Source: Longimicrobiales bacterium
GTDB lineage: Bacteria; Gemmatimonadota; Gemmatimonadetes; Longimicrobiales; Gaopeijiaceae
Length of the DNA: 64,000 nucleotides
Assembly: GCA_965204735.1 (NCBI GenBank)
Contig: OZ242008.1
Span: forward strand, 2,464,001 to 2,528,000
Direction: 5' to 3'
Under the pieces are notes generated by a model that did no database searches, was not told the origin of the DNA, and saw nothing but the letters and a program-made list of their open reading frames with translations. Of this stretch, positions 1 through 16,360 are shown piece by piece (position 1 is the stretch's first letter; every line of letters starts with the position of its first letter). Made by a program: the position numbers and the translations under genes.

Positions 1-290
1 GCAAGAGCGGCCAGGAGCTCGCGACGTGCTCGCCCGACCGTGGGCGGCTCGGGCCTGGGCGTCCACTCGTCGTCGCCGTCGTCCCAGATGCAAAGCCGGC
101 CAATGGTCGTGTCGCACTCGTGGGAGCGTCCGCCCAAGGTCCGGGGCAGCTCGCGCACGCGCAGCCGCTCGAAGCGGACCTGAAGGCTGCGGGCCTCGTC
201 GCGCAGGGCTGCGGAGTCGGGAGACTGGACGCCGAACGGCACCCATGACGCGGCCAGGAAGGGCCAGGACAGCATCGGAGGCGGGAGCAT
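1..290 (-). CDS. Hypothetical, probably exported protein; runs off the left edge
   Basis: Not in the ORF track. Manual translation from ATG 290 (or 275): MLPPPMLSWPFLAASWVPFGVQSPDSAALRDEARSLQVRFERLRVRELP...ECDTTIGRLCIWDDGD...RARRELLAAL, open to position 1. Confidence 0.65.
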   Translation of the reverse strand, partial: MLPPPMLSWPFLAASWVPFGVQSPDSAALRDEARSLQVRFERLRVRELPRTLGGRSHECDTTIGRLCIWDDGDDEWTPRPEPPTVGRARRELLAAL

Positions 291-444
291 CCTCGTTTCG
301 ACCGTCCGCAGGGTTGCCGGGGGCAGGTTGCCGAGGGTGGAGGCCGGGCGACATTAGTTGGGCCGCGATCGCACGCGCTGGGCACGCGCGCACTGGGCAA
401 AGGTTCAAGCCGCAAGACCGGTCAACCCCGCAGAATTGGCGCAG

Positions 445-2283
445 ATGAACGAGTCCCGCAAGAAGCCGGCAGGTTCGCGTTGGCGACGGGGCGCCCTGCT
501 GGTCGGCGGCTTGGCGGCGCTCGCGGCAGGCGCCCTGGGCTTGGCGTCGGCGGGGGCCTTCGGCCGCGTCCCTCAGCTTCCTTCGACAGACGCGCTCGGG
601 CAGGCGGCGACGGCCGCCGCCGCTTTCGCAGCGGTGCTGCTCGGGTCTTGGGCCCTGCTCGACCCGTCCCGGCGGGGGGCGGACCTTCCCCGCCCGGCAG
701 GGTCGCGCATCGGCCTGGTCCAAGGCGGGCTCGCCGCGGCCGCAGTCTCGACCGGCATCGTCCTGGCCGCCCGCAACTTGGACTTTCCCCTTCGAGTCGA
801 CGAGAGCGAAACGATCGTGCGGTACGTCGCGCAGCCCTTCGCCGTGGCCGCAAGCGACTACGGCGCCGTGAACAACCATGTGCTGCACACGCTGCTGGCT
901 TGGGTCGCCCACCAGGTCGGCGGCTGGAACCGCGTCGTTCTTCGGATGCCGGCGTTCCTGTCGTTCTGCCTTCTGCTTCCAGCTCTGTGGTGGTTCGCGA
1001 AGCGCGAGTACGGACGCACGGCCGCGACGTTCGCGACCACTCTCGCAGCCACTTCGCCCTACCTCGTCAACGTCGCCACGAGCGCCAGGGGCTACACGCT
1101 CATGATGCTCTTCGCCGTGGCGTCGCTGCTGTGCGGACAGGCGCTCGTCCGTCGACCGACCACGGGCAACAGCGCGCTTTGGGCGGCGTGGGCGGCGACA
1201 GTGGGCTTGGGGCTCTTCACGATACCGCTCATGGCGTGGTCCGCCGCCACCACGGTGATCTGGATGCTGCTGGCGCGTCGGCGCAGATGCGGTGGCGACG
1301 AGGCGGCCTGGCCCTTCCTGGCCAGAACGGCGGCTTGGTCGGCCGCGGCGGTCGTGCTGGCCGGCGTTCTCTACGCGCCGGCCCTGGCGAGCACCGCGGG
1401 CGTGACCGATTCCTTGATCGGCCGGGCCGTGGGGCCGCTGTCCAACAAGCTCACCGTGGACACGCTGGAGGACGTCGTGCGCGTCTGGCGGGATTGGCAC
1501 GCGGCCCTTCCTGCCTGGGCCGGAGGCGCGCTCTTGGCGCTGGTCCTTGTCGGAGCCGCGGTGCCGGGCCGAAGCTGCGGGCGTCGGGGGACCTTCTTGC
1601 CGGCCGTCCTGGCTGCCCCGGCTTTGCTGTGCTTGACGAAGCCATTTCCGCAGGCTCCCCGTTTCGCAGTCGCCACGCTGCTGCTGCTGACGATCAGCGC
1701 GGGCGCGGGCGCCGCCCTGGTCCTGGAGCGGGCCGTGGCGCGGACCCGCTCCCGTTGGCCGGGCGGCGGCGCGCCAAGCTTGGCGAACGTCCAGTGCGGC
1801 GCCGTGGTCCTCTTGCTCGTCGCCCTGACGTGGGCGGCGAGCCGGCCCGGAGTCGCGTCGCGGCACGGGTACCTGGGCGGGCAGACGCCGGGGTACCCGG
1901 TTCTGCAGAAGATGATCGCGTCGGTCGAAGGCCAGATGCGGTCGGGCGACTACTTTGCCGCCAGCAACGGCGCGCACCAGGCAATCGCATACGCCGCGAA
2001 CTTCCGCGAGATCGAGGCCCACGTGGGCCGGTATCCGCCCGTGCCGAACGCGCGCGGGTGGCCGGTCCACCAACTCTCGCCTTCGTCGGACGCGCCGTCC
2101 GTCCCGGCGCCGGATGGGCGGTTCTTCCTGTTCGACCCGGAAGACGCCCGCGCGCCCTCGACGAGCGCGGTCTCCACGGCCCGAGAGCATCTGGAGGCGT
2201 ACTGGCCAGGGTACGAAGTCGTCGCGCACTTTGCCGAGGGGCCCGCGTACTTGGTGAACGGTTGGACAGGAGCGCCGCAGTGA
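445..2283 (+). CDS. Multi-TM GT-C fold (PMT_2/GT39-like) glycosyltransferase
   Basis: Many hydrophobic segments; LRVDE acidic motif after a TM helix, NNHVLHTLL, LRMPAFL, SARGY. Start set at ATG 445 (MNESRKK). Confidence 0.7.
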   Translation: MNESRKKPAGSRWRRGALLVGGLAALAAGALGLASAGAFGRVPQLPSTDALGQAATAAAAFAAVLLGSWALLDPSRRGADLPRPAGSRIGLVQGGLAAAAVSTGIVLAARNLDFPLRVDESETIVRYVAQPFAVAASDYGAVNNHVLHTLLAWVAHQVGGWNRVVLRMPAFLSFCLLLPALWWFAKREYGRTAATFATTLAATSPYLVNVATSARGYTLMMLFAVASLLCGQALVRRPTTGNSALWAAWAATVGLGLFTIPLMAWSAATTVIWMLLARRRRCGGDEAAWPFLARTAAWSAAAVVLAGVLYAPALASTAGVTDSLIGRAVGPLSNKLTVDTLEDVVRVWRDWHAALPAWAGGALLALVLVGAAVPGRSCGRRGTFLPAVLAAPALLCLTKPFPQAPRFAVATLLLLTISAGAGAALVLERAVARTRSRWPGGGAPSLANVQCGAVVLLLVALTWAASRPGVASRHGYLGGQTPGYPVLQKMIASVEGQMRSGDYFAASNGAHQAIAYAANFREIEAHVGRYPPVPNARGWPVHQLSPSSDAPSVPAPDGRFFLFDPEDARAPSTSAVSTAREHLEAYWPGYEVVAHFAEGPAYLVNGWTGAPQ

Positions 2284-2705: not shown

Positions 2706-2782
2706 CTGGGATCAGCGACCCGACGGACAGGGACATGGGCGCAGTTCAAGGAGCTGGTGAGGAAGACCCGGCGCTAGCTGGG
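2669..2782. repeat. 42-bp direct repeat x2 (1 mismatch) with a 30-bp spacer, duplicating the 3' end and stop codon of the upstream gene
   Basis: gcagttc(g/a)aggagctggtgaggaagacccggcgctagctggg at 2669-2710 and 2741-2782. Confidence 0.9.
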
Positions 2783-2815
2783 CCCGGCTAGGCTTGGCGG
2801 GGGCTCTCGGGGAAG

Positions 2816-2881
2816 TGGTGGCATTATGGTAGCAAAATGGTGGCATTATGGTAGTAGAATGGAGGCATTACGGCAGCAAGC
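2816..2881. repeat. 22-bp tandem repeat x3, AT-richer than its surroundings
   Basis: tggtggcattatggtagcaaaa / tggtggcattatggtagtagaa / tggaggcattacggcagcaagc. The third copy contains the Fic stop codon. Confidence 0.9.
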
Positions 2882-3749
2882 GTCTCGTCGCCGCGATCAA
2901 GGCGTCCACCGTGCGCACTGCCAGGAAGTGCACGAAAGGACGCAAGTCTCCCGTGTCCGCGGCTTGCAGGGCGTCGAAGTAGCCGTGTCGGGCGTCGGCG
3001 TCGATCACCGGCGGCGGCCAATGGCGGCGTGCGTAGAGGTAGGCGACGAGAGCCCGCGCGACTCGTCCGTTGCCGTCTTGAAACGGATGAATCTGCACGA
3101 AGCGGTGGTGCAGCCATGCGGCTTCGACTTCAGTCGGCGTCCCTTGGTCCATGTGGGCTTCGTGCATCGCCAGCAGCCGGTCCATTTCGGAGCGCACCTG
3201 CTCCGGTGGACAATACTCGTGCAGGTCGCCGGACAGGGTGATCGGGTTGTTGGGGCGAACCTTGTACTTCCCCTTGAGCAGCGGAACTTCGACGCGTCGG
3301 CCGGACACGGTCGCGCCCGTGGCGGTGTCCTGGGAGCGGGTGATGCAGGCGTGCCACTCGCAGATCAGCCCGTTCGAGAGCGGACGTCGGCCGGCCACGG
3401 CGTCGAAGACCATGTCGAGGCCTCGCCGCTGGTCCTCCAGGTGCGCGCCGAGTTCCTTGGCCGACAGCGTGGACTCTTCCCGCCCCACCACGACGGCTTC
3501 GAAGCCGCGCGCGACGAGCTGCTCCGTCAAGCCCCGGGTCAGGTCGTACAAGCCCTCGATGCGTCCCGTCTCGATGGCCCAGGCCCGGGCGTTCTCTTCA
3601 AGGAAGCGGTCGAGTCGGCTCCGGGAGGTACCGGGGCGCGTGGCGGACGCACGCGACGCCTGCCACTCCTGGTCGAGTTGGCGCACGGAGTCGCTCGCCA
3701 GAGCGTCCGGCTCCTGCTCGTAGTCCAAGATGGGCTTCCAGGCGGGCAT
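2868..3749 (-). CDS. Fic family protein (AMPylase) with N-terminal autoinhibitory motif (class II)
   Basis: Canonical HPFQDGNGRVAR; (S/T)xxxE(G/N) motif TGRIEG. Start ATG 3749 (MPAWKPI) within ORF 2868..4823. Confidence 0.9.
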   Translation of the reverse strand: MPAWKPILDYEQEPDALASDSVRQLDQEWQASRASATRPGTSRSRLDRFLEENARAWAIETGRIEGLYDLTRGLTEQLVARGFEAVVVGREESTLSAKELGAHLEDQRRGLDMVFDAVAGRRPLSNGLICEWHACITRSQDTATGATVSGRRVEVPLLKGKYKVRPNNPITLSGDLHEYCPPEQVRSEMDRLLAMHEAHMDQGTPTEVEAAWLHHRFVQIHPFQDGNGRVARALVAYLYARRHWPPPVIDADARHGYFDALQAADTGDLRPFVHFLAVRTVDALIAATRRLLP

Positions 3750-3811
3750 GGCTTTGCGGAGCAGCGAGTTGGACCGGCTCTTGGTGGCGCGTGTGTCGGA
3801 AGGCGGGGGAG

Positions 3812-6800
3812 TCAGAGAGGGTCGGTGTAGTTCAGCAGGTCGACGTGGTCCGGGAGCGCGCTTCCTTCGCGAAAGTAGAGAGCCCGAAAGCGCTTCATCT
3901 GCTTGATCTTGTCGATCAACGCCTTTTCTTGCCGGGAGTCGGCCACGTTCCTGACCAGCGCCTTGGCGTCGGCGTCGGTCAGCCGCAACACCAAGTAGTT
4001 GGCCACGGCCGAGAAGACGGACTTGTGAAAGTCCCTTGCTTCTTGCGACGCCAGCACCAGCGACACGCCGTACTTCCGGCACTCCTTCGCCATGGTGGGA
4101 ACGACGTTCAGCCGCGCGGCCCGGTGGGCCTCGTCGAAGACGACCGCGTGAGTGATCCGATCCTGAACTCCCCGCCGGAACATGTCCTTGTAGAGGCCGT
4201 AGAGGATCAGCGACGAGAAGGCTTTCTGGAGGCCGTCGCTCTGGCTGCGGTGGATGCGGATGACTGTGGGCTCCCCGCTCTCCCACAGGCTTCCGTGGGC
4301 CTTCCCCACATCGAAGAAGCCGTAGTCGTTGAGCTCCTCCAAGCGCACGAGCAGGTTCGCCAGCCCGCTGTCCCGGTTCTCCTGGTCCGCCAGGATCTCG
4401 AAGAACCGCTTGAACGGGGGTTCCCGGAGCTCCGTCGGATCGACGCCGGGGTCGGCCCACCCCTCCCGCACAAAGCTTTCCTTGACTGCGCTCCGAATCG
4501 CTTCCCCTTGCAGGTCCCCCAGCCCCGGGTAGATCGCGACGAAGATGTCGCGCAGCGCGCCCGCCACATTGAGGTAAGGCCGGTGAGCCGTCCGGTCGGG
4601 GATGTGCAGCGGATTGAAGCCGAGTCCGTCGAAGTCGACGAACCTGATCGAGCCCACGATCTCTTCCAGCTTCTCGTCCAGGTCCTGGTGGTACGAGAAG
4701 ACGATGGGGCGGACTCCGTGGTCGAGCATCTGGCGGCACAGGTTCAGAAGGCAGGTGGTCTTTCCCATGCCGGGCAAGCCCGCCACCAAGAGGTGCGGAT
4801 TGCCTTTGACGGTGAGCTTCCAAGTGACTTGCTCGCGCTTGAACCGGTCGGCGCCCAGGACGATGGCGGACTCCCGCGGCGACGCCGGGGCTTGATCCCG
4901 GACGGCGCCCCCGTTCTGCACCGTCGTCGCGAGTGCAGCCGGTTCCCCCGACAGAGGAGGCGACGGGGCATTGCTGGTCGCGGAAGCGACATCGGGCTCA
5001 AGGCTGGGCTGCTCGGCCCCGGTCGGCTCGGCCACCGGTTGCCCGACGGGGTGGTCGGGCTCCGGTACGCCGCTGGAACGCGGTCGCGGGGACCGGCGTC
5101 GCCCTTCGAGGTCGGGCAGGCCGCTGGGACCGAAGAGGTAGACGCCGATGTCGTCGTCGGGCGGCGAAAGGCGCTGGGGCGCCGACTCGGCGTACTCGGG
5201 ACAGAACACCCAGCCGAGGTCGGCGCCCGGCTCGTCGACGAAAGCGTAGGCGTCTCCCTTCCCCACCATGCGATCGATCTCGGCAACGAGGGCTTGATGC
5301 CGTTCGTCTGCGAGAGCGTGCCTGCGGGCCTTGTCCGCATAGAACCGCAGCACGCGGGCCAGCTTGGCGCGTCGGACCGCCCGAAACGACTGGGCAGCAG
5401 CGTCGTTGTACCAGGCGAACCAACCCTTGCGCAGCGAGGCGGTCTGCTTGCGGACGGCTCGCGTCACCTCGAGCGACCGAGCAGTGCGCAGGTGCCGCCG
5501 GTACTTAACTTCGACGAACCGGAACATCAGGCCCTTCCTGGGCGCGTTCGTCACGTAGATGATGTCGGGTCGCGGGACGCCGCGGGAAGCCCCCGTCGTC
5601 GGGGCCAACGGCGGGAGGAGGTCGCGCACGTCGTCGACCGGCACGAAGAACCCGTCGCGCAACGACGTCCAGCACGGGTTCCCGGCTTCGCTGGCGGCGC
5701 ACTTCGCCTGGACAAGGGCCAGCGCGATCAGTTCCGACGCGGGCACGTTCCTTCCGGTGAGCCTGATCGCCAGGCGGCCGCTGAGCGCCTTGAGCTGGTT
5801 CATGAGGAACTCGGCGTTGCTGCGGCTGCGGCTGAGTCCCATCCGATCCAGCGCTTGGTTCAGCAACCCCTGGACCTCGTCCAAGTTGGTAGTGGACGTG
5901 ATCAGCTGGAGGCACCCCAGGTCCTCCCTCTCCGGCACGCAGTCGATCACGTAGGCGTCGTAAATCTCCTTGTTGTCGTTGGGCGAATCGAAGTACTCGA
6001 CCCCCGCGTTTCGGTCCAGCGTGACGACCCAGTCGGCAAGCTTGTGCAGAGTCGCCAGACTGGCCTCCTTGTCGCCCGAGATGCGCGTGCGCAGGACGGG
6101 AACGCCCTCGCCGGCGCCGAGTCCCTGGGTCACGAGGCGCTGGACGTGGTTCTGCAACCGCATGAGCCGGTCGGTGTGGGTTCGGTTGCCCGGATGCTTG
6201 TCCCCTTCGTTCCATGCAGGGACCGCGCTGCGCCAGTTCGGTTCGGGCGAGCTCCAGTACTCCCTGTCGAAGAAGGACAGCAGCCCGAACGCGTGAAACG
6301 GTCGACTCCTCGGGTCGGCGTCGTCCGCGTGAACCCGAGACTCGAACGTGTCGAATGCGATCGCCAGATGAGCCGGCTCCGCCGGTTCGGCCTGTTCCTT
6401 GCGAGCCCAGCGAAGGCGCGGCACCCGAACGCCGCCGGGCAAGCTCAGCGACTTCAGCAGCCATCGGTCTTGGTCGGCCACGGTCCCCGCCCTGCGCCTT
6501 CGCCTCTCTTGGCGCTCGGCAATGAACCTGCCGACGATGCCAGCCTCTCGCGTCCTCTGCGAGGGGTACAGCTCCAACACGAAGGACACCCCCTTGCCGG
6601 CGCGGTCGCCGGTCCCGTTGTCGCTTTCCTTGCGCTCCTGTTCGTCCAGCTCTTTGGCGGCCTTGCCAAGGGCCCGGGCAACGGTGCGCCCGTCTCCGGC
6701 CCTGAGGGCGTGAACGCGGAGGGTGCGGCAACCGTCGTGGCACTCCATGTACTTCAGTATCTCGGTCCCGAGCACGTCGGCGCTCCGTGTCCCGACGCTG

Positions 6801-8923
6801 GGCTCCGCGCCGCTCCTGGCGTCTTCCTTGTCCCCGAGAGCCCGGCGAAGAACCGACACGGTGGCCTTGGGCTCCTTGTCGCTGTCGGGGACCATCCCGA
6901 CGGCGTGAAACCCCAGCGTGTCCGCAAAGACGAAGGCGTAGTGCGGCTCGAGTCCCGGAAGCATCGCAGGGAACATGGCCCCGTCGAGCACGCCGAACTC
7001 CTTTCGGATGTCCCGCGGGCGCATCTGCTCGGAGAAGGCGGCGTGGAGCACCAAGTTGTCGTAGGCGACGTGCCACGCCACCCTCAGGGGATGGCCGGGC
7101 AGGACGATCAAGCCGACGAGCCGACCGGACTGGGACTGGACCTCGACGGTGTTGGCCAGCGCCAGGGTCGGATCGTCCGCCGCCTCGTATAGGAGAGCCG
7201 TCCAAGCCCTCAGGTACTCCGTCACGTCCGCGAATCCGAGGACCTGGTCGTCGTAGACCTGACCGACGCCGCCAAAGTCGTCGAAGCGGGCCCTCATCTT
7301 CTGGCAGGTCTTCTCCATCTTCGCCCAATGGCCGGCCGTCACGCCTTCCGGACGAGCCAGCGGAACGAACTCCGGGTAGCCCACCCGTTCCCCGGACGCC
7401 CTCACCTTCACCCGCCAACGGCCGACTACGCCGCCGCTGATCCGCCACTGCTCCTCGACGTCCTTGATCAGCGACGGCCTCTGGACGCGAAAGCCGATCC
7501 GCTTGGTGGGCGACCTCCACTTGAGGAAGCCCTTGGCGTTCTTAGGCCGCCCGCCGTCGAGAGACGTCAGCCGAGCAACCTCTTCCCGACTGCCAAGGTC
7601 GATCAGCCCCTCGACAAAAGTGCGATGGAGCCTTCCCCCAACGCCGACCTCGGACTCCGCCGGTTGGCCGAAGCGTATCTCGAAATCCTCTGTCGCCTGC
7701 CGTGCCACGGTTTCCGCGCCCGGAACCTGGACCACGACCCGGGCCGGCACCACTGCATCTTCGGGAAGCGTCGCGAAGTCTTCTCCCACGAACGCGGACT
7801 TCTCAGTGGCAGTCCCCTTGTGGACGACCTCTCGGTAGGCCAACTCGTCGTCGCCTGTCGCGGTCATCACGCTCACCCGGTAGTGGACCGATTCCTTGGG
7901 CAGGCGCGCCGGACGAGTCTTCCAGCGGACCTCGAGCTTCGATTTGTCTTGGGTCGAGTCCGGATCGACGATCAGCCGCGGCGGCTCGTCGGCAGCGACG
8001 GGTTCGGCCAGTCCGCTCCACTTCAGCATGCGCCCGGTCTTGCTGCGCCAGGGCAGGAGCTGGATTTCGCGAATCTCGTCGAAGGCGTCTTCCACCTGCA
8101 GCTCGTTTACCCACAGGTGTCTCTTCTCCGACAGCGCCGCGAGGGCTTCTTGGCGCAGCTTTGGTACTTCGTCGCGGAGAAAGCGCTCCAGGTCTGCGAG
8201 CTGCCGATCCGTGGGGTCGAGGAGCCGCAGGGTCGCGATGCGTTCGGCGGGCATGAGTCCCGACGCGCCGGAGCCAAAGAGATGCTCGACAAACCGTTGC
8301 GAGGTGTCGAGATCGTCCACCGATTCCTGTCCGAGCCGACCTGCAACTGGCCACAGTCCCAACAGGTGCAGGTAGGCGCCTGCATGCCTTTTGTTTGCGG
8401 CAACCCGGCAGTAGAAGTCGTAGATCGTCCAGGGCGACACGCTGTCCCTGCCGCCAACTGCGCGGGCCTTGCCGACGGCCTTCTCCGCGTACTCTCGGTG
8501 CTTCCTCGACAGCTGCTTGGTTATCTCTCCTGCGGCGGTCGGGTGTGCGATACCGAACAGCTCTTGCTCGTCAACCTCTTGGGCTGCGTTGTAGATGCCG
8601 TCCATCCCGGCGCCAGCGCGATCCGTGTCCACGAGAAGCAGAGTCTGGCCTTCCTTGGCTTCCCGCAGTTCGACCGCCCAGTCCGCCGTGATCGTACGCG
8701 ACTCGGCGTCGGCAGCGTCCGCGACGCGAAGTATCTTCCACTCGTTCAGGTCGAAGTTGGCGTCGTGCGCCAGCAGCACCACGACATCGGGGGTCAGGCA
8801 CCGGACGAACGCCATCGTGCCGGGCCCCGGCTCGCCGAGGATCTTGGCAAACGACGCCGCAAACAAACTCCCGTGGGCGTAGGTCCAATCGTCAAACCCG
8901 AACTTCCCACTTGGCCGCGTCAC
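3812..8923 (-). CDS. DndH/DptH-like (MAD8-like) large protein: PD-(D/E)xK nuclease-like region plus C-terminal HerA/FtsK-type ATPase
   Basis: 1703 aa; PRPDIIYV...FVEVKYR; NPHLLVAGLPGMGKTT (Walker A), VVFDEAHR (Walker B), KECRKYGVSLVLASQ. Size and position match DndH/MAD8. Confidence 0.8.
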   Translation of the reverse strand: MTRPSGKFGFDDWTYAHGSLFAASFAKILGEPGPGTMAFVRCLTPDVVVLLAHDANFDLNEWKILRVADAADAESRTITADWAVELREAKEGQTLLLVDTDRAGAGMDGIYNAAQEVDEQELFGIAHPTAAGEITKQLSRKHREYAEKAVGKARAVGGRDSVSPWTIYDFYCRVAANKRHAGAYLHLLGLWPVAGRLGQESVDDLDTSQRFVEHLFGSGASGLMPAERIATLRLLDPTDRQLADLERFLRDEVPKLRQEALAALSEKRHLWVNELQVEDAFDEIREIQLLPWRSKTGRMLKWSGLAEPVAADEPPRLIVDPDSTQDKSKLEVRWKTRPARLPKESVHYRVSVMTATGDDELAYREVVHKGTATEKSAFVGEDFATLPEDAVVPARVVVQVPGAETVARQATEDFEIRFGQPAESEVGVGGRLHRTFVEGLIDLGSREEVARLTSLDGGRPKNAKGFLKWRSPTKRIGFRVQRPSLIKDVEEQWRISGGVVGRWRVKVRASGERVGYPEFVPLARPEGVTAGHWAKMEKTCQKMRARFDDFGGVGQVYDDQVLGFADVTEYLRAWTALLYEAADDPTLALANTVEVQSQSGRLVGLIVLPGHPLRVAWHVAYDNLVLHAAFSEQMRPRDIRKEFGVLDGAMFPAMLPGLEPHYAFVFADTLGFHAVGMVPDSDKEPKATVSVLRRALGDKEDARSGAEPSVGTRSADVLGTEILKYMECHDGCRTLRVHALRAGDGRTVARALGKAAKELDEQERKESDNGTGDRAGKGVSFVLELYPSQRTREAGIVGRFIAERQERRRRRAGTVADQDRWLLKSLSLPGGVRVPRLRWARKEQAEPAEPAHLAIAFDTFESRVHADDADPRSRPFHAFGLLSFFDREYWSSPEPNWRSAVPAWNEGDKHPGNRTHTDRLMRLQNHVQRLVTQGLGAGEGVPVLRTRISGDKEASLATLHKLADWVVTLDRNAGVEYFDSPNDNKEIYDAYVIDCVPEREDLGCLQLITSTTNLDEVQGLLNQALDRMGLSRSRSNAEFLMNQLKALSGRLAIRLTGRNVPASELIALALVQAKCAASEAGNPCWTSLRDGFFVPVDDVRDLLPPLAPTTGASRGVPRPDIIYVTNAPRKGLMFRFVEVKYRRHLRTARSLEVTRAVRKQTASLRKGWFAWYNDAAAQSFRAVRRAKLARVLRFYADKARRHALADERHQALVAEIDRMVGKGDAYAFVDEPGADLGWVFCPEYAESAPQRLSPPDDDIGVYLFGPSGLPDLEGRRRSPRPRSSGVPEPDHPVGQPVAEPTGAEQPSLEPDVASATSNAPSPPLSGEPAALATTVQNGGAVRDQAPASPRESAIVLGADRFKREQVTWKLTVKGNPHLLVAGLPGMGKTTCLLNLCRQMLDHGVRPIVFSYHQDLDEKLEEIVGSIRFVDFDGLGFNPLHIPDRTAHRPYLNVAGALRDIFVAIYPGLGDLQGEAIRSAVKESFVREGWADPGVDPTELREPPFKRFFEILADQENRDSGLANLLVRLEELNDYGFFDVGKAHGSLWESGEPTVIRIHRSQSDGLQKAFSSLILYGLYKDMFRRGVQDRITHAVVFDEAHRAARLNVVPTMAKECRKYGVSLVLASQEARDFHKSVFSAVANYLVLRLTDADAKALVRNVADSRQEKALIDKIKQMKRFRALYFREGSALPDHVDLLNYTDPL

Positions 8924-10752
8924 GGCTTCTCTCCAAACCGAGGTCGCAAGCGCTTCATCGCTTCCGCGTCGTTGACTCCGACCAGAAGGCCTAAGTCCCG
9001 GAGTCTACGCTCCAGGCAGCTCCGATTCGCTTGCAACACGGCGTTGGAAACCATCATTCCCGGCGGCGCTTGGTCGACGCAGAAGCCGTACCGCTCGCGA
9101 AGGACGGCGATGAATTCCCCGAACGACACCGCACGAAGACTCTTGCCCGAGCCCGATGGCAGCACATGGCGGTGCACTAAGTACTCCAAGACTGTATCGG
9201 TGAAGATCATCGACCGCACCACGCGGCTCTGGGGGCCAGGCGAGCCGGACGCCTTGCGCCTGGTCCGACGCTTGGTTGCCAGGCCGTTCGGACGATCCAT
9301 GTGCAGCGACGAATCCACAAGCTCACGCATGTGCGTTTGTATCTTCCGACCTTGCCACGACGTCAGCGCCTCCGCCAGCCGCCATACGGGATTGGGTTGA
9401 ACGTCAGCGCGGCGCAACTCCTCGGCAACGGCGGGGTAGTCGTTCTCGCTTGCCTCGGCCAGCTCGAGAGAGAGATCGTCAAAGCCGTCCAAGATTCGAC
9501 GAGACTCCCGACACCGATCGTGAACCACCTCGCCCAGGAAGTCAATCCACTCCTTTGCTACGGGACTCGAGGACAGCTCGTCCCTCTTGAAACGCTTCTG
9601 CACCGCACTGTTGTTGCGACTCCGATAGTCAAGCAGTCGAAGGGCCATCAACACGACCGGGAGACGCTCGAGCTTGCGGAGGTACTCGTCCATCGACTGT
9701 TCCGCGATGCTCCGAAGCCCTCGGTCCGCTCCTGCCGAAGTGTCCACAAACACGGACGAAGGCGACTTGTCCGCCAAATCTCCCGTGGCAGCCCAGCCCA
9801 GCACGACCTCCACGACACCGGCAACGATCGACGAGAGGCCTACGGCCATGCACGACTCGGTCATCTCCACGAACGCCTGCCTGGGCACGCTTGACTCATA
9901 CGCTCGCAAGAACTTGCGGATGTCCTCCGAGAACGCCCTCGAGACCTGGAACGCTATGGGACGCCTGTTGGGAATCGCAGCACCGCCTTTTCCCTTCATC
10001 GACGCCGGCGCCGCTTCTAGCGCCTGCGCGAGTCGGATCGTCAGCAGTTGGTCGATGCCGACCGCCTCGTCTTCGTCGAAGCAGTCGGCTGCCAGGTTGC
10101 CAACTGTGGAGCGACGTCGCATTCCCTTGCTGACAGCCCTGAGAAGGACGTTCTCGGTAAAAATGTCGTCCTCTGGTCTTCCCACGACAGGAAACCAAGT
10201 GCGCTTGCCGCCGTTTGTGGTCTCTCGGACGTAGTCCGTTTTCTGATTCGCCAGAATGGCAACGATTGTCTCCGGAACGTGGCGCAGGTTCACAACATGA
10301 TCTGGAAGGTCGATCCATGCCGCCATGTAGTGGGCGGGCGCCACGCGCTGGATTGGCTTTGATCGGCCCAGTTCGTATCCTCGGTTCTCCAGGCAGTAGC
10401 ACAGCAGGAGGTCGCCCAAGATCGCCTTCTCGACTTCGCCCTTGAACCCAAGGAAGTCGGAGGCGTCCTCGCGGGCCAGGCTCGAGGCCACCGACTGCAC
10501 CGTCGTGTTGCGCTTCCGGTGGCTCTTGGTGCCCTCCGCAGGCCCGAAGGTCTCGACAAAGCGGCCCGGCCCCCGACGCTGGCCGAAGCGAAACATGTAG
10601 AAGACGGCCGGCAAGACGGCGGACAGATCGAAGGCCAGCACCGAGATCGGCAGGACCTTCTCGTAGCTGTGCGACCATATCTCCCTGGTCATCCGGGAAC
10701 CGAGCACCTCGGCCGCCACCTCCCGGGGCGTGGCCCCCACGGCGTCACTCAT
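8920..10752 (-). CDS. DndG/DptG-like (MAD7-like) protein
   Basis: 610 aa, overlapping both neighbours. C-terminal wHTH-like FGEFIAVLRERYGF...LERRLRDLGLLVGVNDAEAM recalls the DptG C-terminus. The call rests mostly on synteny. Confidence 0.65.
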   Translation of the reverse strand: MSDAVGATPREVAAEVLGSRMTREIWSHSYEKVLPISVLAFDLSAVLPAVFYMFRFGQRRGPGRFVETFGPAEGTKSHRKRNTTVQSVASSLAREDASDFLGFKGEVEKAILGDLLLCYCLENRGYELGRSKPIQRVAPAHYMAAWIDLPDHVVNLRHVPETIVAILANQKTDYVRETTNGGKRTWFPVVGRPEDDIFTENVLLRAVSKGMRRRSTVGNLAADCFDEDEAVGIDQLLTIRLAQALEAAPASMKGKGGAAIPNRRPIAFQVSRAFSEDIRKFLRAYESSVPRQAFVEMTESCMAVGLSSIVAGVVEVVLGWAATGDLADKSPSSVFVDTSAGADRGLRSIAEQSMDEYLRKLERLPVVLMALRLLDYRSRNNSAVQKRFKRDELSSSPVAKEWIDFLGEVVHDRCRESRRILDGFDDLSLELAEASENDYPAVAEELRRADVQPNPVWRLAEALTSWQGRKIQTHMRELVDSSLHMDRPNGLATKRRTRRKASGSPGPQSRVVRSMIFTDTVLEYLVHRHVLPSGSGKSLRAVSFGEFIAVLRERYGFCVDQAPPGMMVSNAVLQANRSCLERRLRDLGLLVGVNDAEAMKRLRPRFGEKP

Positions 10753-13700
10753 GGTCGCCTCCTTCGTTTTCGATCACTAGCCGCTGGCGGGGAGAGCCCG
10801 GCTCGCTTCGGTCGATCACGGCTTTGATCCGGTAGGTCGCATCGTCGCGGATCGGGTTCCAGGCCACCAGCTCCCGGTCGTCTTCCCGGAGGAGGCGCTG
10901 GAGGAATATCGAGAGGTTCGCAAAGGTGTCGTCCGTCGAGACGTCGCCAAGCTGGTAGCCTTCCCCGAGCTCCAGAAGACGGTGGAAGAGCTCCGCGCCC
11001 ATGCGCAGTCGTTCCTCCAGGCCGCTGTCGCGCCGATAGACGAGATGGACGCATCGGTGAAGCAGAGAGAGTGGTCCCCTCGGGAACGACCGATTTCCGT
11101 CAGCCGTCGGGGGTGGCAACTCCGACTCCAGCCGGAATCGCGCAATCGGCTTTTCGGACCAGAACGCGGTCTCGGTGGGGGTGCGCGGCTGAATGCGAAG
11201 GGGAACCACGTCGTCGCGCCGCAAGGCCTGCGCTGGCAGGTCGCCCAGACGCGCGATCCCGCGGCAAAGATCGGTGCGCAGCTGGGCGCGGGCTTCGGCG
11301 TCGAGGAACGGCGCCTCTCGGAAACGCCGGATGTGGCGTCCCTGGGTCAAGCCGACGTCGTTCGTCTCGAAGTAGGCCCGTCGCCGGGCGGACGCCAGTC
11401 GCCGGGAGGCGTCTCGACCGTCTGGGGCGTCCTGCTCCAGGAGCAGCCTTCTGTCGACTTTGGGATCGGCGTCCAGAGCCGGGTCCAAGCGAACGAACTC
11501 GGCCAGCACCTCGCCCTGGCGGGCCGGCGACAACGGGTCGAAAGCCCTGTCCCAGTAAGCCCGGGAGGCGCTGCCGGCCTTCCCCTCGTGGTAGTCCGAG
11601 CAGTACTCGGTGCCGAAGAGAACGTACACCAGGGCGCCACGGAGCTCGCGGACGGTGATGTGGGTCTCTCCCCGGAAGTGAACGGCCTGCAACGCTTCGA
11701 AGAGACGCTGGCGAGCCGTCGTTCGCAACTTGTCGTCCTCCGAAAGGCCGGCGGGACCAAAGAGCCGGGTCGTCTGATACACGCCGCAGGCGTCTTGGGC
11801 GGAGCACGTGACGCAGGGCTCCCACTTCGCGACAGCGTCTTCGCCACCGTAGAGGCTGTCCACCAAGCGGTTCAGGAAGTCCGTCTTGATCGTCCCGGCG
11901 TTCCAGTCGATCCCTCCGACGTGGGAGCGGTCGTTCAAGCTGTAGAAGGCGATGTGGTCCTGGGCCGAAGCTTGGTCGTCGGCCGAAGCGTTGGCGCCCA
12001 GGCGTTCCAGCAGGGCACGGGTAAGTGCCGTTTCCCCGACATGCTCGATCCACTCCAGCAGGCGACCGTCGTTGACCGCCAGGAGGTGCACGACGTCTTC
12101 CTTTGGCGGGCCGTCCTGGAACGGCGCCAGGAAGTCGTCCAGCAGATCGTTGGCGGAACGACCCTCCCAAGCCGCCGAGCCGTCCAGGTTCACGCGAACG
12201 CGAAGTCCGTCCTCGACCACCCCTTCAAGAATGCGCTTGGCGGAACGGTGGCTGCCAAGTCCAAGTTTCTGGGCCAAGTGCTGGAGCAGCGCGGTCTTGC
12301 CGTCGCCTGCGTTGCCGCATAGCACCACGAGGCGCACCTGCCGGCCCCGCACTTCGTCGTAGAGAACTTTCTCGAGTTCCGTCTCGACGTAGGTACGCTT
12401 CGCAAAATCGCTGTCCAGGCCGCGGGTCTCCCGGTTGCCCCAGCGCGAACCGGGGTAGGACTGCAACAGGGAGCACAGCCACTCGGCTTCGTTCGGCGAG
12501 CGCTCGGCGGGCGCGACGACCGGCAGCGCAGGAGGTGGAGGCGACGGCGCCGAAACGTCGATCTCGCGAGAAGTCGGCTGATCGTCCCCCGGCGGCTCCT
12601 GGGTTTCGGCGGCGTCGGCAGGACGCGGCGTCTTCAACGCTTCGATGGCTTCGGCGCCCGAGGAGAAGCGCTGGGCGGAATCAGGGGCGGTGGCGCGATC
12701 CATGAACTCGGCCGCCCGCGGATAGGCGGCTCGGTTCCCGTGCTCCCAGTTCAGACCGCGTTCCTTCACTTGGCTTGTGTCGTGAACGAAGGGCTCTTTG
12801 TCGAAGAGCACATGAAAGAAGCTGGCCGCAAGCGCAAAGAAATCGTCGGACGGCTGGGCCTCTCCCTTGCGAACGCGGTTCGGCGAGCCGTATAGGACGG
12901 CGCCGGGCGACACCGGAGACTCGCCGATGGGCGTGACGAAGTCGTAGTCGGTCAGGACAAGGTGGTTCTTCGTCTGGTCCGGCTGCCCGAAGTCCTGCGT
13001 TCTGGAGACGATGACGTTGCCCGGGCTCACGTCTCCGTGCACCAACCCGTTGCGGTGCAGCACGGCCAACGCTTCGCACATCTCGCGCAGCCAGCGGAGA
13101 ACCAGCTCCTCAGCCTCCTCGTCCTGGTCCTCGGCGAGCAGTGGGACCACGCCGCCATAGTCGGCCAGCGCCGAGCCCTCGATCCAGGTCGCCAGGGCAA
13201 CGAACTCGTTGTCCCGCCACTCCGGCGCGACTTCGAAGACGGCGGCAAGCCCCGGGTGCCGGCTCACCGGCTGCCGAGCCCGTCGATAGCCTTGGCGAAC
13301 CTGCTCGCCGGTCGCCTCGTCGCTCACGACCTTGCCGACGAACGTGCCCACTTCCCGTCCCGTGGAGTCGTCAAGCTCGACCACCTTGAAGGCGGTCCCC
13401 ACTCCCCCCGACCCCAGGCGAGCCACCACGCGGTAGGTGCCGTTCCGGAAACGCACTTCCTGATCCTCGGTCCAGAACCGAGCCGCGGGAACAGCCGCTC
13501 GCGGAACATCCTGCCCCAGGAACGCTGCGAACTCGCTTGCCAGCTCCTCCAGAGACGGACGGTCCTCCGGCGGGCCCAGCCCTCTCGCAAGGACGCTCTT
13601 GACCTCGGGCGCCTGCCAGCCGTCGCTGCTCTCGTAGCCTGCGAAGAGCACGTGGAGGGACGCGCACAAGGAGTAGATGTCGGAGCGCTGGTCCGCGGCG

Positions 13701-14824
13701 GACAGGCCGTGTTCCCGCACCTCCGGCGCAACGCCTTCGTCGTGCTCGCGGACCTGGTATCCGGCGAGACTCGGGCTGTGAGCCACAGGGGTGCCAACAT
13801 GCTCGAATCCGGTGAGGACCGGCGAGTTGTCGTGCTTCACCAGGATCGTCCGGGGCGACAGGTTCCGGTGCACCAGTCCCAGCCCGTCGGCCGATTCGTG
13901 AAGCTCCTTTACGGCAATGATCGCCTGGCGGGCGAAGTCGAGGCGTTGCTTCAGTCCCCACGACTCGTCGGCAGCCCGCTCCTTGGCGCTGGGCACGGCC
14001 GGGTCCACGACCGTGAAGAACTTCATCTCGCCGCGGTACCCCGGGGCGTCCTGAAACGAGTCCAGGATCCGGGGCGCCCACCGGAAGCGCGACAGCTGAT
14101 GGTGAAGCGCGTCGTGCTCGCGCCGCGCCGCCCGCTCTGGATTTCCCGCCACGCCGGCGGACATGTCGTACAGGTGGAGGAACACCCGATCCTTTCGCGA
14201 CGAGTGCATCCCCTTGTAGATGCGGTGAAACGCTTCTTCCTCCGGCGTCTGCAGCTCGAGGTTCACGTAGCCGGCAAGCCTCCTGAGCGGCAGAGAGCCG
14301 TCGATGGCGATTCCGCTTCTGGTCGTCAGCTCCTTCGCCAGCCTCTTCACCTGCTGCTGCGAAAGCACCGGAGGTTCGTCTGGCCGGAGCGCCGACCGCC
14401 ACTCCTTCAGAGGATGAAACTCGACTCCTCTCACCTTCCTGCGGCTCGTCAGCCGCTTCACCTTGGAAGCCGGACGGGTCAGCAGGACCACGCCGTCCAC
14501 ATGAGGAAGGCTGGGCACGATCCTGCGGAGCGTGGTGCCGATCTTGCTGGCCTTGGTCGTGATCCGGTCGGCCTCGTCTTCCGCCATGTCGGCATGGGCG
14601 TCGCTCCAGTGCTTGACCTCGACCACCCGAACGCCGGGCGGGCCGATCGCCACCATGTCGATCTCTGCGGATTGAAGCTGGTGAGTGACGGAGAACATCA
14701 GATTTGTCAGCAAACACCAGTAATCGTCACCTGGCAGGGAGATCAGGCCGGCCTTGACCTTCTCCAGCGCCCGGCGCTCGCTCTCGGTGACGGCGGGGCC
14801 GCAGGGAACGGGGACGGCCCTCAC
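10745..14824 (-). CDS. NERD nuclease + pseudokinase + Ser/Thr kinase + DndF-like P-loop ATPase (MAD6-like)
   Basis: NERD EIDMVAIGPPGVRVVEVKHW; kinase 1 VHRNLSPRTIL/TGFE; kinase 2 LGSGGVG, VHGDVSPGNV, TDYD; P-loop VVLCGNAGDGKT, LAVNDGRL; CxxCx4C. Start probably GTG 14824 (track extends to 14956). Confidence 0.85.
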   Translation of the reverse strand: MRAVPVPCGPAVTESERRALEKVKAGLISLPGDDYWCLLTNLMFSVTHQLQSAEIDMVAIGPPGVRVVEVKHWSDAHADMAEDEADRITTKASKIGTTLRRIVPSLPHVDGVVLLTRPASKVKRLTSRRKVRGVEFHPLKEWRSALRPDEPPVLSQQQVKRLAKELTTRSGIAIDGSLPLRRLAGYVNLELQTPEEEAFHRIYKGMHSSRKDRVFLHLYDMSAGVAGNPERAARREHDALHHQLSRFRWAPRILDSFQDAPGYRGEMKFFTVVDPAVPSAKERAADESWGLKQRLDFARQAIIAVKELHESADGLGLVHRNLSPRTILVKHDNSPVLTGFEHVGTPVAHSPSLAGYQVREHDEGVAPEVREHGLSAADQRSDIYSLCASLHVLFAGYESSDGWQAPEVKSVLARGLGPPEDRPSLEELASEFAAFLGQDVPRAAVPAARFWTEDQEVRFRNGTYRVVARLGSGGVGTAFKVVELDDSTGREVGTFVGKVVSDEATGEQVRQGYRRARQPVSRHPGLAAVFEVAPEWRDNEFVALATWIEGSALADYGGVVPLLAEDQDEEAEELVLRWLREMCEALAVLHRNGLVHGDVSPGNVIVSRTQDFGQPDQTKNHLVLTDYDFVTPIGESPVSPGAVLYGSPNRVRKGEAQPSDDFFALAASFFHVLFDKEPFVHDTSQVKERGLNWEHGNRAAYPRAAEFMDRATAPDSAQRFSSGAEAIEALKTPRPADAAETQEPPGDDQPTSREIDVSAPSPPPPALPVVAPAERSPNEAEWLCSLLQSYPGSRWGNRETRGLDSDFAKRTYVETELEKVLYDEVRGRQVRLVVLCGNAGDGKTALLQHLAQKLGLGSHRSAKRILEGVVEDGLRVRVNLDGSAAWEGRSANDLLDDFLAPFQDGPPKEDVVHLLAVNDGRLLEWIEHVGETALTRALLERLGANASADDQASAQDHIAFYSLNDRSHVGGIDWNAGTIKTDFLNRLVDSLYGGEDAVAKWEPCVTCSAQDACGVYQTTRLFGPAGLSEDDKLRTTARQRLFEALQAVHFRGETHITVRELRGALVYVLFGTEYCSDYHEGKAGSASRAYWDRAFDPLSPARQGEVLAEFVRLDPALDADPKVDRRLLLEQDAPDGRDASRRLASARRRAYFETNDVGLTQGRHIRRFREAPFLDAEARAQLRTDLCRGIARLGDLPAQALRRDDVVPLRIQPRTPTETAFWSEKPIARFRLESELPPPTADGNRSFPRGPLSLLHRCVHLVYRRDSGLEERLRMGAELFHRLLELGEGYQLGDVSTDDTFANLSIFLQRLLREDDRELVAWNPIRDDATYRIKAVIDRSEPGSPRQRLVIENEGGDHE

Positions 14825-14828
14825 AGCC

Positions 14829-14875
14829 CTGCGCTCGTCGGCGGTACTGCGCTCGTCGCGGGCCCTGCGTTCATA
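14829..14875. repeat. Three short direct repeats at 18-bp period upstream of the kinase gene
   Basis: ctgcgctcgtcg at 14829 and 14847; ctgcgttcata at 14865. Confidence 0.65.
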
Positions 14876-14962
14876 AGGTGGTCTTTGGGGGGACGGGTGG
14901 GCGGGAACAGCTGCTCGGGCGGGCAACAGGATAGAAGGCGGCAGGACGGCAAGCAAGCCGGC

Positions 14963-16156
14963 TCACTCGATCGACGGTCCCACGGGCTGCAGGACTTGGG
15001 CCAGCTGCCTCAAGGGCACGGCTCGCACGCCATCCGCGAGGCGGTAGTCGGCCGCGCCCGCGTGCACGACGTCCAGCCGGTCGAGCTTCAGCGCGTCCAT
15101 GGCCGAACGCATGGAGCGGGTCAGGCGGGGCGACTCGGAGCGCTTGACCTCGAAGCCGTGGCGTCGCGTGCCGTCGACGATCAGCAGGTCCACTTCGGCG
15201 CCCGTGTGCGTAGACCAGTGGAAGCACTGCTCCGGCGAAGCGCCCGTCAGGTGGGTGATCTGCTGCACCACGAAGCCCTCCCACGACGCGCCGACCCTTG
15301 GATGCGAGAGCACGTCTTCGCGGGTGGTCAACCCCAGCAGCGCGTGCAGGATTCCCGAATCGCCGACGTACACCTTTGGCGAGCGCACTTGCCGCTTTGC
15401 GATGTTCTCGAACCAGGGCTGAAGCTGTCGGACAACGAAGACGGAGGTCAGCAGGTCCAGATAGCGTCGCACCGTGGTGTGAGCGACGCCGAACGCCCTG
15501 CCGAACTCCGATCCGTTCCACACCTGACCGTGCCAGTGGGCCAGCATCGTCCAGAAGCGCCGGAGGGTGACCGGCGACGTTCCGGCCTGGAACTCCCGCA
15601 CGTCCCGGGAGAGGAAGGTGCGGATGAAGTCGTCGCGCCAACGGCGGCTGGCGGGAAGCGAGCCGGCCAAGTACGAGCGGGGGAAACCTCCCCGCAGCCA
15701 CAGGCGGTCGGCGTCGGCGACCTCCTTCAGCCCGAAGCCGTCGAGTTCGTGGAACGCCACCCGGCCGGCCAAAGTCTCCGAACTCTGGCGGAGGAGCTCC
15801 GGGGATGCGCTCCCCAGCACGAGAAAGCGGGCGGGAACCCCGGGTCGGTCCGCCAGAACCCGAAGAAGTCCAAATACGTCCGGGAGGCGGTGAATCTCGT
15901 CCAGCACGACCAAGCCGCGGAGGGGTCGGAGCTCCAGGCCGGGCTCGGCCAGCCGGGCGAGGTCGACAGGGTCCTCCAGATCGAACCAGGCGACTGGTGC
16001 TCCGTGCGAGGCGGCGAGCCGTCGCGCGAGGGTCGTCTTCCCCACCTGTCGCGGGCCGACAAGGGCGACGACGGGAGACTCGCCCAGCAGCAGGCGCACG
16101 CGCCGCAGATGGTCTTCTCGGGGAACGTCGGTCGTCGTTCGGGAAGTGGTCATCAT
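14963..16156 (-). CDS. AAA_14 ATPase with wHTH and DUF4143 domain
   Basis: GPRQVGKTT, VVLDEIHR, LGSAS, RGGFP, SPKVYVGDSG, GASWEGFV, GAEVDLL...GFEVK. Start ATG 16156 or 16153. Confidence 0.9.
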   Translation of the reverse strand: MMTTSRTTTDVPREDHLRRVRLLLGESPVVALVGPRQVGKTTLARRLAASHGAPVAWFDLEDPVDLARLAEPGLELRPLRGLVVLDEIHRLPDVFGLLRVLADRPGVPARFLVLGSASPELLRQSSETLAGRVAFHELDGFGLKEVADADRLWLRGGFPRSYLAGSLPASRRWRDDFIRTFLSRDVREFQAGTSPVTLRRFWTMLAHWHGQVWNGSEFGRAFGVAHTTVRRYLDLLTSVFVVRQLQPWFENIAKRQVRSPKVYVGDSGILHALLGLTTREDVLSHPRVGASWEGFVVQQITHLTGASPEQCFHWSTHTGAEVDLLIVDGTRRHGFEVKRSESPRLTRSMRSAMDALKLDRLDVVHAGAADYRLADGVRAVPLRQLAQVLQPVGPSIE

Positions 16157-16193
16157 TGAAAAATGAACAGATGGCGCACAGATTTCAATGATG
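16151..16193 (-). promoter_or_regulatory. Perfect 11-bp inverted repeat enclosing a sigma70-like promoter
   Basis: catcattgaaa-N21-tttcaatgatg. On the minus strand TTGAAA-N17-CATTTT lies just before the ATG (possible leaderless mRNA). Confidence 0.6.
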
Positions 16194-16198
16194 CATCC

Positions 16199-16283
16199 GA
16201 TCGCTCCCCGCACGCGGAGGCGGCCGGGAGGGGTGCTGTCTGGAACGGTCAGGGCCGGATCGCTCCCCGCGTGCGGAGGCGGC
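16199..16283. repeat. 26-bp direct repeat x2 with an internal mini-palindrome, 33-bp spacer
   Basis: gatcgctccccgc(ac/gt)gcggaggcggc at 16199-16224 and 16258-16283. Confidence 0.85.
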
Positions 16284-16289
16284 GGCCAG

Positions 16290-16360
16290 TTGGCCCGGGT
16301 GGAGTCGAACCACCATCACCGGTTCCAAAGACCGGTGTCTTGCCGTTAGACGACGGGCCA
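16290..16360 (-). tRNA. tRNA-Gln (TTG), CCA not encoded
   Basis: TGGCCCGTCGTCTAACGGCAAGACACCGGTCTTTGGAACCGGTGATGGTGGTTCGACTCCACCCGGGCCAA: acceptor stem TGGCCCG/CGGGCCA, anticodon loop CT-TTG-GA, T-loop GTTCGAC. Confidence 0.95.

Follow-up and report, generated by a model that had tools for sequence, protein, structure and literature searches.

How does a restriction machine spare the DNA of its own host when no DNA-marking partner genes accompany it? This is the central question raised by three adjacent genes, here termed F, G and H (the trio), in a 64,000-nucleotide stretch (the window) of contig OZ242008.1 from the genome of a Longimicrobiales bacterium. The products resemble the DndFGH restriction proteins as well as MAD6, MAD7 and MAD8 of MADS. 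The trio is a real, intact and well-supported defence-type cassette, and no methylation or phosphorothioation operon is linked to its lineage in the loci that were scanned. At a confidence slightly short of even, we favor an anti-phage or anti-plasmid machine of the DndFGH class, in which an infection-triggered translocating nuclease would need no self mark. Orphan trios and their kinase fusion have already been described computationally, and the lineage is not a new class; the trio is worth a bench test as a member of that described kind. The 2024 proposal of a DndFGH that needs no modification partner to work is, in its available text, a computational one, and this lineage offers a clean test case, being intact, unlinked to such operons and present both in genomes without a match to phosphorothioation enzymes and on plasmids that two cultured Rhizobium strains carry. 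Should the trio protect on its own, it would show a restriction motor telling self from non-self without a mark.

An intact cassette of DndFGH-type genes

Adjacent genes of the trio, all on the minus strand (Table 1), overlap by 8 bp (F/G) and 4 bp (G/H). An earlier note on this DNA had described overlapping genes with intact motifs, and the open reading frames, family scans and near-invariant catalytic residues in about 60 homologues agree with that description. The longest open reading frame of F (10745-14956) begins at a TTG, and the codon model and the starts of homologues make the GTG at 14824 the most likely start, giving 1359 amino acids (aa). The assembly appears sound because the trio is spanned by an independent sponge-metagenome contig (window 2813-20398, 465 differences) and by a second public contig (2753-14865, 0 differences), the latter possibly from the source sample. 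Compared with the copy in the congener G003, dN/dS (the ratio of nonsynonymous to synonymous substitution rates) is about 0.16-0.23, which points to purifying selection on the trio. For four flanking housekeeping genes dS is lower (0.6-0.7) than for the trio (0.9-1.4), and the cassette may therefore have been exchanged.

Gene F matches NERD (PF08378), Pkinase and the SspF/DptF P-loop family, with an E-value of 1e-13 for the SspF P-loop profile. Conservation was assessed in 61 full-length homologues, leaving out duplicates and copies shorter than 1250 aa. The NERD Asp, Glu and Lys and the second-kinase Lys, HGD, Asn and Asp are invariant (61/61), as are the Walker A motif and five Cys/His residues of the core, and neither catalytic aspartate is present in the first kinase. 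The DndF motifs (Walker A, ND, an Asn for the Walker B Asp, and the Zn insert) are kept in 59-61 of the 61, with strands assigned from sequence. The F kinase resembles those of PD-T4-6, MkoA and PglW. The core aligns with MADS-type MAD6 (HHalign probability 99.9), as does, at the level of sequence only, the region expected to hold the DndF C-terminal alpha+beta domain; searching the PDB sequences with the core profile gave no significant match.

Although the identity of G to E. coli DndG is just 10-12%, its AlphaFold model (predicted local distance difference test, pLDDT, 84.5) has a sole strong structural match, DndG 7EXX (Z 16.5, root-mean-square deviation 6.9, 408 residues aligned; next row Z 4.7), and Foldseek scores the same pair at E 8e-5. 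The model thus has the triple winged-helix fold of DndG and ties MAD6-8 structurally to DndFGH through a MAD7-like protein. Homologues of G numbered 1284 among the 8000 candidates scored.

The C-terminus of H matches mad8, DndH and HerA, with DptH 7ES4 as its best PDB sequence match; a PDB sequence search with the H profile gave no significant match. The middle part aligns with MAD8 (HHalign probability 99.8). A structure model of residues 80-1275, with a mean pLDDT of 67 and its first 38 residues below 50, folds in order into a beta-sandwich, an S-adenosylmethionine (SAM) methyltransferase and a restriction nuclease, each with a middling Z of 7-8.8 (7-8.4 to several methyltransferases for the second). 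Together with a HerA/FtsK domain bearing the sensor Gln and arginine finger, the predicted series corresponds to the defining architecture of DndH. The N-terminal inactive superfamily 2 domain, helix-turn-helix, second beta-sandwich and two target recognition domains of DndH are not apparent in the modeled residues.

Among 60 homologues of H of 1590 aa or more, the nuclease Asp, Glu and Lys are kept in 59, 58 and 57, and the HerA Walker A and B motifs in all 60. The methyltransferase-fold and nuclease region is among the best-conserved parts of H across phyla, which differs from what a variable sequence-specificity module displays. Within the methyltransferase fold, the G743-D744 loop and D858/F860 are invariant and position 784 is acidic (E or D) in 57/60, while the catalytic [DNS]PP[YF] motif reads D-T-F-E. 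Because MAD8 retains the same residues (glycine loop, acid, Asp/Phe pair), a binding pocket is likelier than catalysis.

Table 1. Features of the trio and its island; positions are window coordinates for genes and amino acid residues for domains
Feature	Position	Strand	Remarks
Gene F	10745..14824	-	1359 aa; open reading frame call, family scans, 61 full-length homologues
Gene G	8920..10752	-	610 aa; predicted DndG/MAD7-type winged-helix DNA-binding subunit; family scan and AlphaFold model
Gene H	3812..8923	-	1703 aa; DndH/MAD8-type; family scans, model, residue conservation
F, NERD nuclease (PF08378)	D56, E69, K71		family scan and homologue alignment
F, pseudokinase (first kinase)			HRN replaces HRD; DFG aspartate absent
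F, second kinase	K498, D598, N603, D626		intact Ser/Thr/Tyr type
F, DndF core	Walker A 837-844; ND 918-919; N964; Zn-type C1004/C1007/C1013/C1075/H1079		after linker
H, beta-sandwich	about 282-421		structure model
H, degenerate SAM-methyltransferase fold	about 684-999		structure model
H, PD-(D/E)xK nuclease	D1120, E1138, K1140		then disordered linker
H, HerA/FtsK ATPase	Walker A 1382-1389; D1597-E1598; R1616; Q1627
tRNA-Gln(TTG)	16289..16360	-	island insertion site at its 3' side
Island, about 13.5 kb	2740..16281	.	AAA_14/DUF4143 gene, F, G, H, Fic gene; edges approximate
AAA_14 + DUF4143 ATPase (PADLOC PDC-S01)	14963..16213	-	island passenger; start codon uncertain
Fic-domain protein	2868..3749	-	293 aa; island passenger

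A lineage apart from MADS and from marking operons

The earlier note had recognized a MAD6-7-8 or DndFGH-like module without modification genes, and the similarity to both families, whose absence it had named as fatal to its reading, is real. The trio shares the gene order, sizes and domain string of MAD6-MAD7-MAD8, with 22-28% identity to the genuine proteins over parts (F core, G C-terminus, H middle). Unlike MADS, it has no mad1-5 operon upstream, and it scores far under the NCBIfam cut-offs (136 bits against 460 for the MAD6 model on F and 120 against 410 for the MAD7 model on G). The HerA Walker A motif is G-L-P-G-M-G-K-T in the trio versus G-V-Q-G-G-G-K-S in MADS, and BLAST aligns no stretch of the ATPase domains between them. 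Two FastTree phylogenies, one built from 157 G sequences with a single MAD7 as outgroup and the other from 20 + 5 sequences of the middle region of H, neither including canonical DndG or DndH, place the stand-alone and the methylase-linked lineages on separate branches (support 1.0). By these sequence comparisons the stand-alone trio is a deep sister lineage of MADS and not a MADS deletion; a recent deletion of mad1-5 is ruled out by homologous loci without these genes and by the separate deep branch. It should be noted that the published MADS MacSyFinder model has MAD6-8 as its sole mandatory genes, and a lenient run might therefore label the trio as MADS.

The closest description is that of Rakesh, Aravind and Krishnan (2024, PMC10853773), who report DndFGH components in 1798 taxa and all eight dnd genes in 316, term DndFGH a standalone system, and list a DndF fusion of NERD with an inactive and an active kinase as well as a Zn insert. 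A 2026 BREX paper, in the portion available, restates this account. Three linked F-G-H genes, the hallmark of DndFGH as redefined in PMC10853773, are present here and, as far as the available text of that source goes, the two have in common their gene order, DndF core motifs, N-terminal fusion, DndG fold and independence of dndABCDE, and H, like DndH, has about 1700 aa and combines a beta-sandwich with an inactive methyltransferase, a nuclease and a captured HerA. The trio differs from that description in the length of G (610 aa versus a typical 450-500) and in a partly conserved SAM-loop region, which the source terms completely eroded. SspFGH (Wang et al. 2021, PMC8092258) and canonical DndFGH (PMC10470545) likewise have an F-G-H restriction trio, but in the available accounts they pair with phosphorothioation, are toxic without it and have no NERD-kinase front; no such modification enzymes matched in the host genome. 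BREX type 2 PglW and Mokosh MkoA share the NERD-pseudokinase-kinase front with F and differ in their C-terminal half and partner genes.

Homologous loci were fetched from 32 genomes, 75 metagenome contigs, three further Gammaproteobacteria genomes and two Rhizobium plasmids; pRphaR630c of R. phaseoli and pRA_T24_3 of R. anhuiense carry copies. At the 32 genome loci, 29 of them with 1.3 kb or more of upstream sequence before F, Pfam was applied to 231 flanking proteins and PADLOC to 20 that stayed unassigned; at 40 further loci with flanks, the 117 nearest proteins were compared with PADLOC (E ≤ 1e-25). At the genome loci the trio stays together on every contig of sufficient length, no fourth gene is common to the loci, and no mad1-5, dnd or ssp operon occurs in the scanned flanks of the 72. 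Their neighbors are housekeeping genes, transposases or unrelated defense genes. Close homologues without mad1-5 thus exist, contrary to one outcome that the earlier note had named as fatal to its reading. As a positive control, four annotated distant relatives on plasmids (22-26% identity) were examined, and the operon of each carries an N6-methylase gene upstream; next comes an annotated specificity (S) subunit in three of them, and the fourth shows the gene order of MADS. In the MADS-like operons of Bacteroidota plasmids (L140, L142), a PP2C phosphatase gene comes after the methylase, S, kinase, G and H genes; no such neighbor was observed for the stand-alone trio. Among viral contigs, 103 pattern matches included no trio relative.

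The host genome (single contig, 4.14 Mb, 98% complete) has neither a mad1-5 cluster nor a further copy of F, G or H. DndC, DndD and PF01507, the family of phosphoadenosine phosphosulfate (PAPS) reductases, had no match in it while positive controls did; DUF4007 also had none, in a search with no positive control. We take SspD to belong to PF01507, so that this search would cover it. Neither a canonical Dnd set (dndBCDE) nor an Ssp set (sspBCD) was thus detected by these sequence searches, and the complete mad1-5 or dndABCDE cluster elsewhere in the genome that the earlier note had also considered fatal was looked for and is not there. A phosphorothioate mark supplied in trans, one form of the trans-encoded self mark that the note had allowed, is unsupported for this host and was rejected; among the other trio genomes, DndC exceeds its cut-off in just 10 of 33. 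PF01507 has no match in three of the 18 trio genomes tested (G003, G086, G063), and the DptG and DptH TIGRFAM models matched nothing in trio genomes, nor in the controls. Weak PAPS-reductase domains occur in seven matches besides the main one in genome G084 (that of locus L024), possibly a repeated mobile gene, and in the last gene of a three-gene unit at L019 (362-3699, minus strand; 556, 285 and 278 aa) that has no PADLOC match.

Methylase genes are present in the host. Ten N6-methylase-like matches were found, none above the MAD2 cut-off, as were four mad5-like and three Methylase_S matches. The best MAD2-like match (170 bits) is an isolated 896-aa protein 0.8 Mb away (C1:1632314-1635004; L033 10315-13005), with an N6-methylase domain and a specificity-like tail in one frame. 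At C1:243177-245095 a MAD3-like ABC ATPase gene precedes a MAD4-like gene (30% and 35% identity), with no methylase match linked to the pair. Long frames in G002 and G003 likewise contain MAD2-like matches, of about 200 bits.

How host DNA might be spared

In the proposed mechanism, the machine would need no self mark because it stays off until triggered. By analogy with DndFGH, for which the available text of PMC10470545 describes a 2:2:1 complex that binds, translocates and nicks DNA, F, G and H would assemble, G and the front of H would grip DNA, the HerA motor would translocate it and the PD-(D/E)xK domain would cut it. Following the available text of Rakesh et al. (PMC10853773), the nucleotide-binding core of F may sense an infection cue (a nucleotide, phage protein or DNA structure) and license cutting, and the NERD nuclease and kinase could form a second tier, as a phospho-switch or for cell suicide. 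In the portion of Maestri et al. available (bioRxiv 10.1101/2023.03.30.534895), a MADS strain with mad2 deleted and mad6-8 present was obtained and grew, losing only its protection, and a kinase-type trio therefore need not be lethal without its methylase. The hosts of the trio span many phyla and include the carriers of two conjugative Rhizobium plasmids, which suggests that it spreads without a cognate mark.

Several observations weigh against this proposal. The experimentally tested relatives all rely on a self mark: in the available text of the same preprint MADS protection is lost without mad2-4, and the partly available accounts of SspFGH and DndFGH describe harm to unmodified host DNA. 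A literature search, mostly outside subscription journals, found no experiment on a stand-alone kinase-fused trio, just two computational papers. Five of the 32 genome loci have a frameshift, an insertion sequence or a G-H fusion. Two loci, L017 and L136, have lost NERD and kinases yet keep G and H in frame, which disfavors the kinase as an obligatory gate. Type I-like methylases lie near 7 of the 72 loci (L010, L020, L030, L079, L080 as a fragment, L082, L115), full-length, co-oriented and directly upstream at L020, L082 and L115, and MAD2-like at L030 (480 bits against a cut-off of 720). Type I HsdM is found in 34/36 trio genomes versus 13/18 trio-less relatives. In the two loci without kinases (L017 8176-9996; L136 about 8130-9990) F is the DndF core alone, and the in-frame deletion of NERD and both kinases in L017 could be recent or an assembly error. 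At L030 (10013-16300), G (residues 9-535) is fused in frame to H (from 143) as a protein of 2095 aa, with a specificity fragment and the MAD2-like methylase downstream. Of the Rhizobium copies, one is followed by two methylase genes.

A broader formulation, possible but less likely than not, is that this widespread sister lineage of DndFGH and MADS, having shed any dedicated self mark, either plugs into whatever Type I methylase its host has or senses SAM or an invader base modification in its dead-methyltransferase pocket, switching on a kinase-controlled translocating nuclease. Both options would amount to a way of telling self from non-self that has yet to be shown for the DndFGH class.

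The first of these options appears unlikely on its own. In it the trio would be an alternative restriction subunit that works with a resident Type I M/S complex encoded elsewhere, either by docking on it or by reading its methylation, much as MAD6-8 rely on MAD2/MAD5. This option draws on the upstream methylase of the sister lineage and the requirement of MADS for mad2 (in the available text), on the genome-level frequency of HsdM, on the S-subunit, MAD2-like and MAD3/MAD4-like matches in the host, and on the three upstream hsdM genes on different branches. Yet no single methylase family is common to the trio genomes: MAD2-like matches (E ≤ 1e-25, at most 17 candidates scored per genome) occur in 17/36, none above the cut-off, and likewise in the trio-less G002. 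The neighboring hsdM genes belong to different families (L020 against L082/L115, 27-33% identity), L020 and L082 carry their own hsdR, and the sisters of the methylase-linked loci have no such neighbor. The host MAD2/3/4/5-like genes lie scattered over the genome and share just 23-35% identity with MADS proteins, and HsdM is common in the controls. These partner counts, which are descriptive since related genomes are not independent and several are fragmented, speak against one fixed trans mark, and a promiscuous Type I partner would stay compatible with them. At L020, L082 and L115, Type I genes ending in hsdM upstream of F on three branches could mirror the origin of MADS.

The second option, a modification-dependent (Type IV-like) system, seems about as improbable. 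In it a base modification carried by invader DNA and missing from the host would be recognized by G or by the degenerate methyltransferase pocket of H. Such a system would require no partner gene, the invariant or near-invariant pocket residues of H would fit ligand or base binding, and the cross-phylum conservation is compatible with one fixed target. Against it, MAD8 keeps the same residues yet, in the published text available, restricts unmethylated DNA, and Pfam detected no known modified-base reader domain (SRA, EVE, ASCH).

That abortive infection by the kinase and NERD domains is the main output, with G and H just a DNA-scanning sensor, is given little credence. The invariance of both sites in the full-length F proteins (shorter copies being left out) and the similarity to the PD-T4-6, MkoA and PglW kinases would suit it, but the H nuclease is conserved too, two loci do without NERD and kinases, and canonical DndF has no such domains. 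An active methyltransferase in H marking host DNA, as in Type IIG enzymes, is no more credible: the fold and the motif-I-like and motif-II-like residues are conserved, but the catalytic motif is replaced, the model of this region is of modest confidence, and MAD8 is equally degenerate while methylation of the MADS motif vanishes upon mad2 deletion (available text of the MADS work). Some broken loci and a partial second F in G003 would fit an inert MADS remnant after loss of mad1-5, an explanation that is largely refuted, and close to negligible, in view of the deep separate lineage, the other HerA type, the abundance of G homologues, the dN/dS and the conserved catalytic residues.

The island at tRNA-Gln and neighboring genes

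The trio sits in an island at tRNA-Gln. Its flanks are an AAA_14/DUF4143 ATPase gene and a Fic gene, as the earlier note had it and the family scan agrees. The congener G001 has the empty site: tRNA-Gln, about 40 bp, then the counterpart of the window 2297-2702 gene. In G003 the trio occupies the same site with different passengers and without the N6-methylase gene that lies nearby in the window; among 60 relatives searched, G was found in G003 only. The AAA_14/DUF4143 and Fic genes were rejected as fourth components, since they are not conserved beside the trio (one PDC-S01 gene lies near L068). A solitary Eco57I-like N6-methyltransferase gene of lower GC (19271-21040, minus strand, 589 aa), between hflX and pdxJ and 4.4 kb upstream of the trio, was rejected as a partner because it is missing at the syntenic site in G003, which has the trio.

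Short direct repeats lie at both island edges, at 16199-16283 (26 nt, two copies, behind the tRNA) and 2813-2878 (22 nt, three copies, behind the Fic gene), with a further one at 2666-2782 (45 nt, two copies) at the end of a small gene; no attachment-site-like duplication of the tRNA end is among the repeats listed. The partial second F of G003 (L038 11516-14194), comprising only the NERD-kinase part (about 870 aa) downstream of the trio, is preceded by a second copy of another, small gene and resembles the remnant of a tandem duplication.

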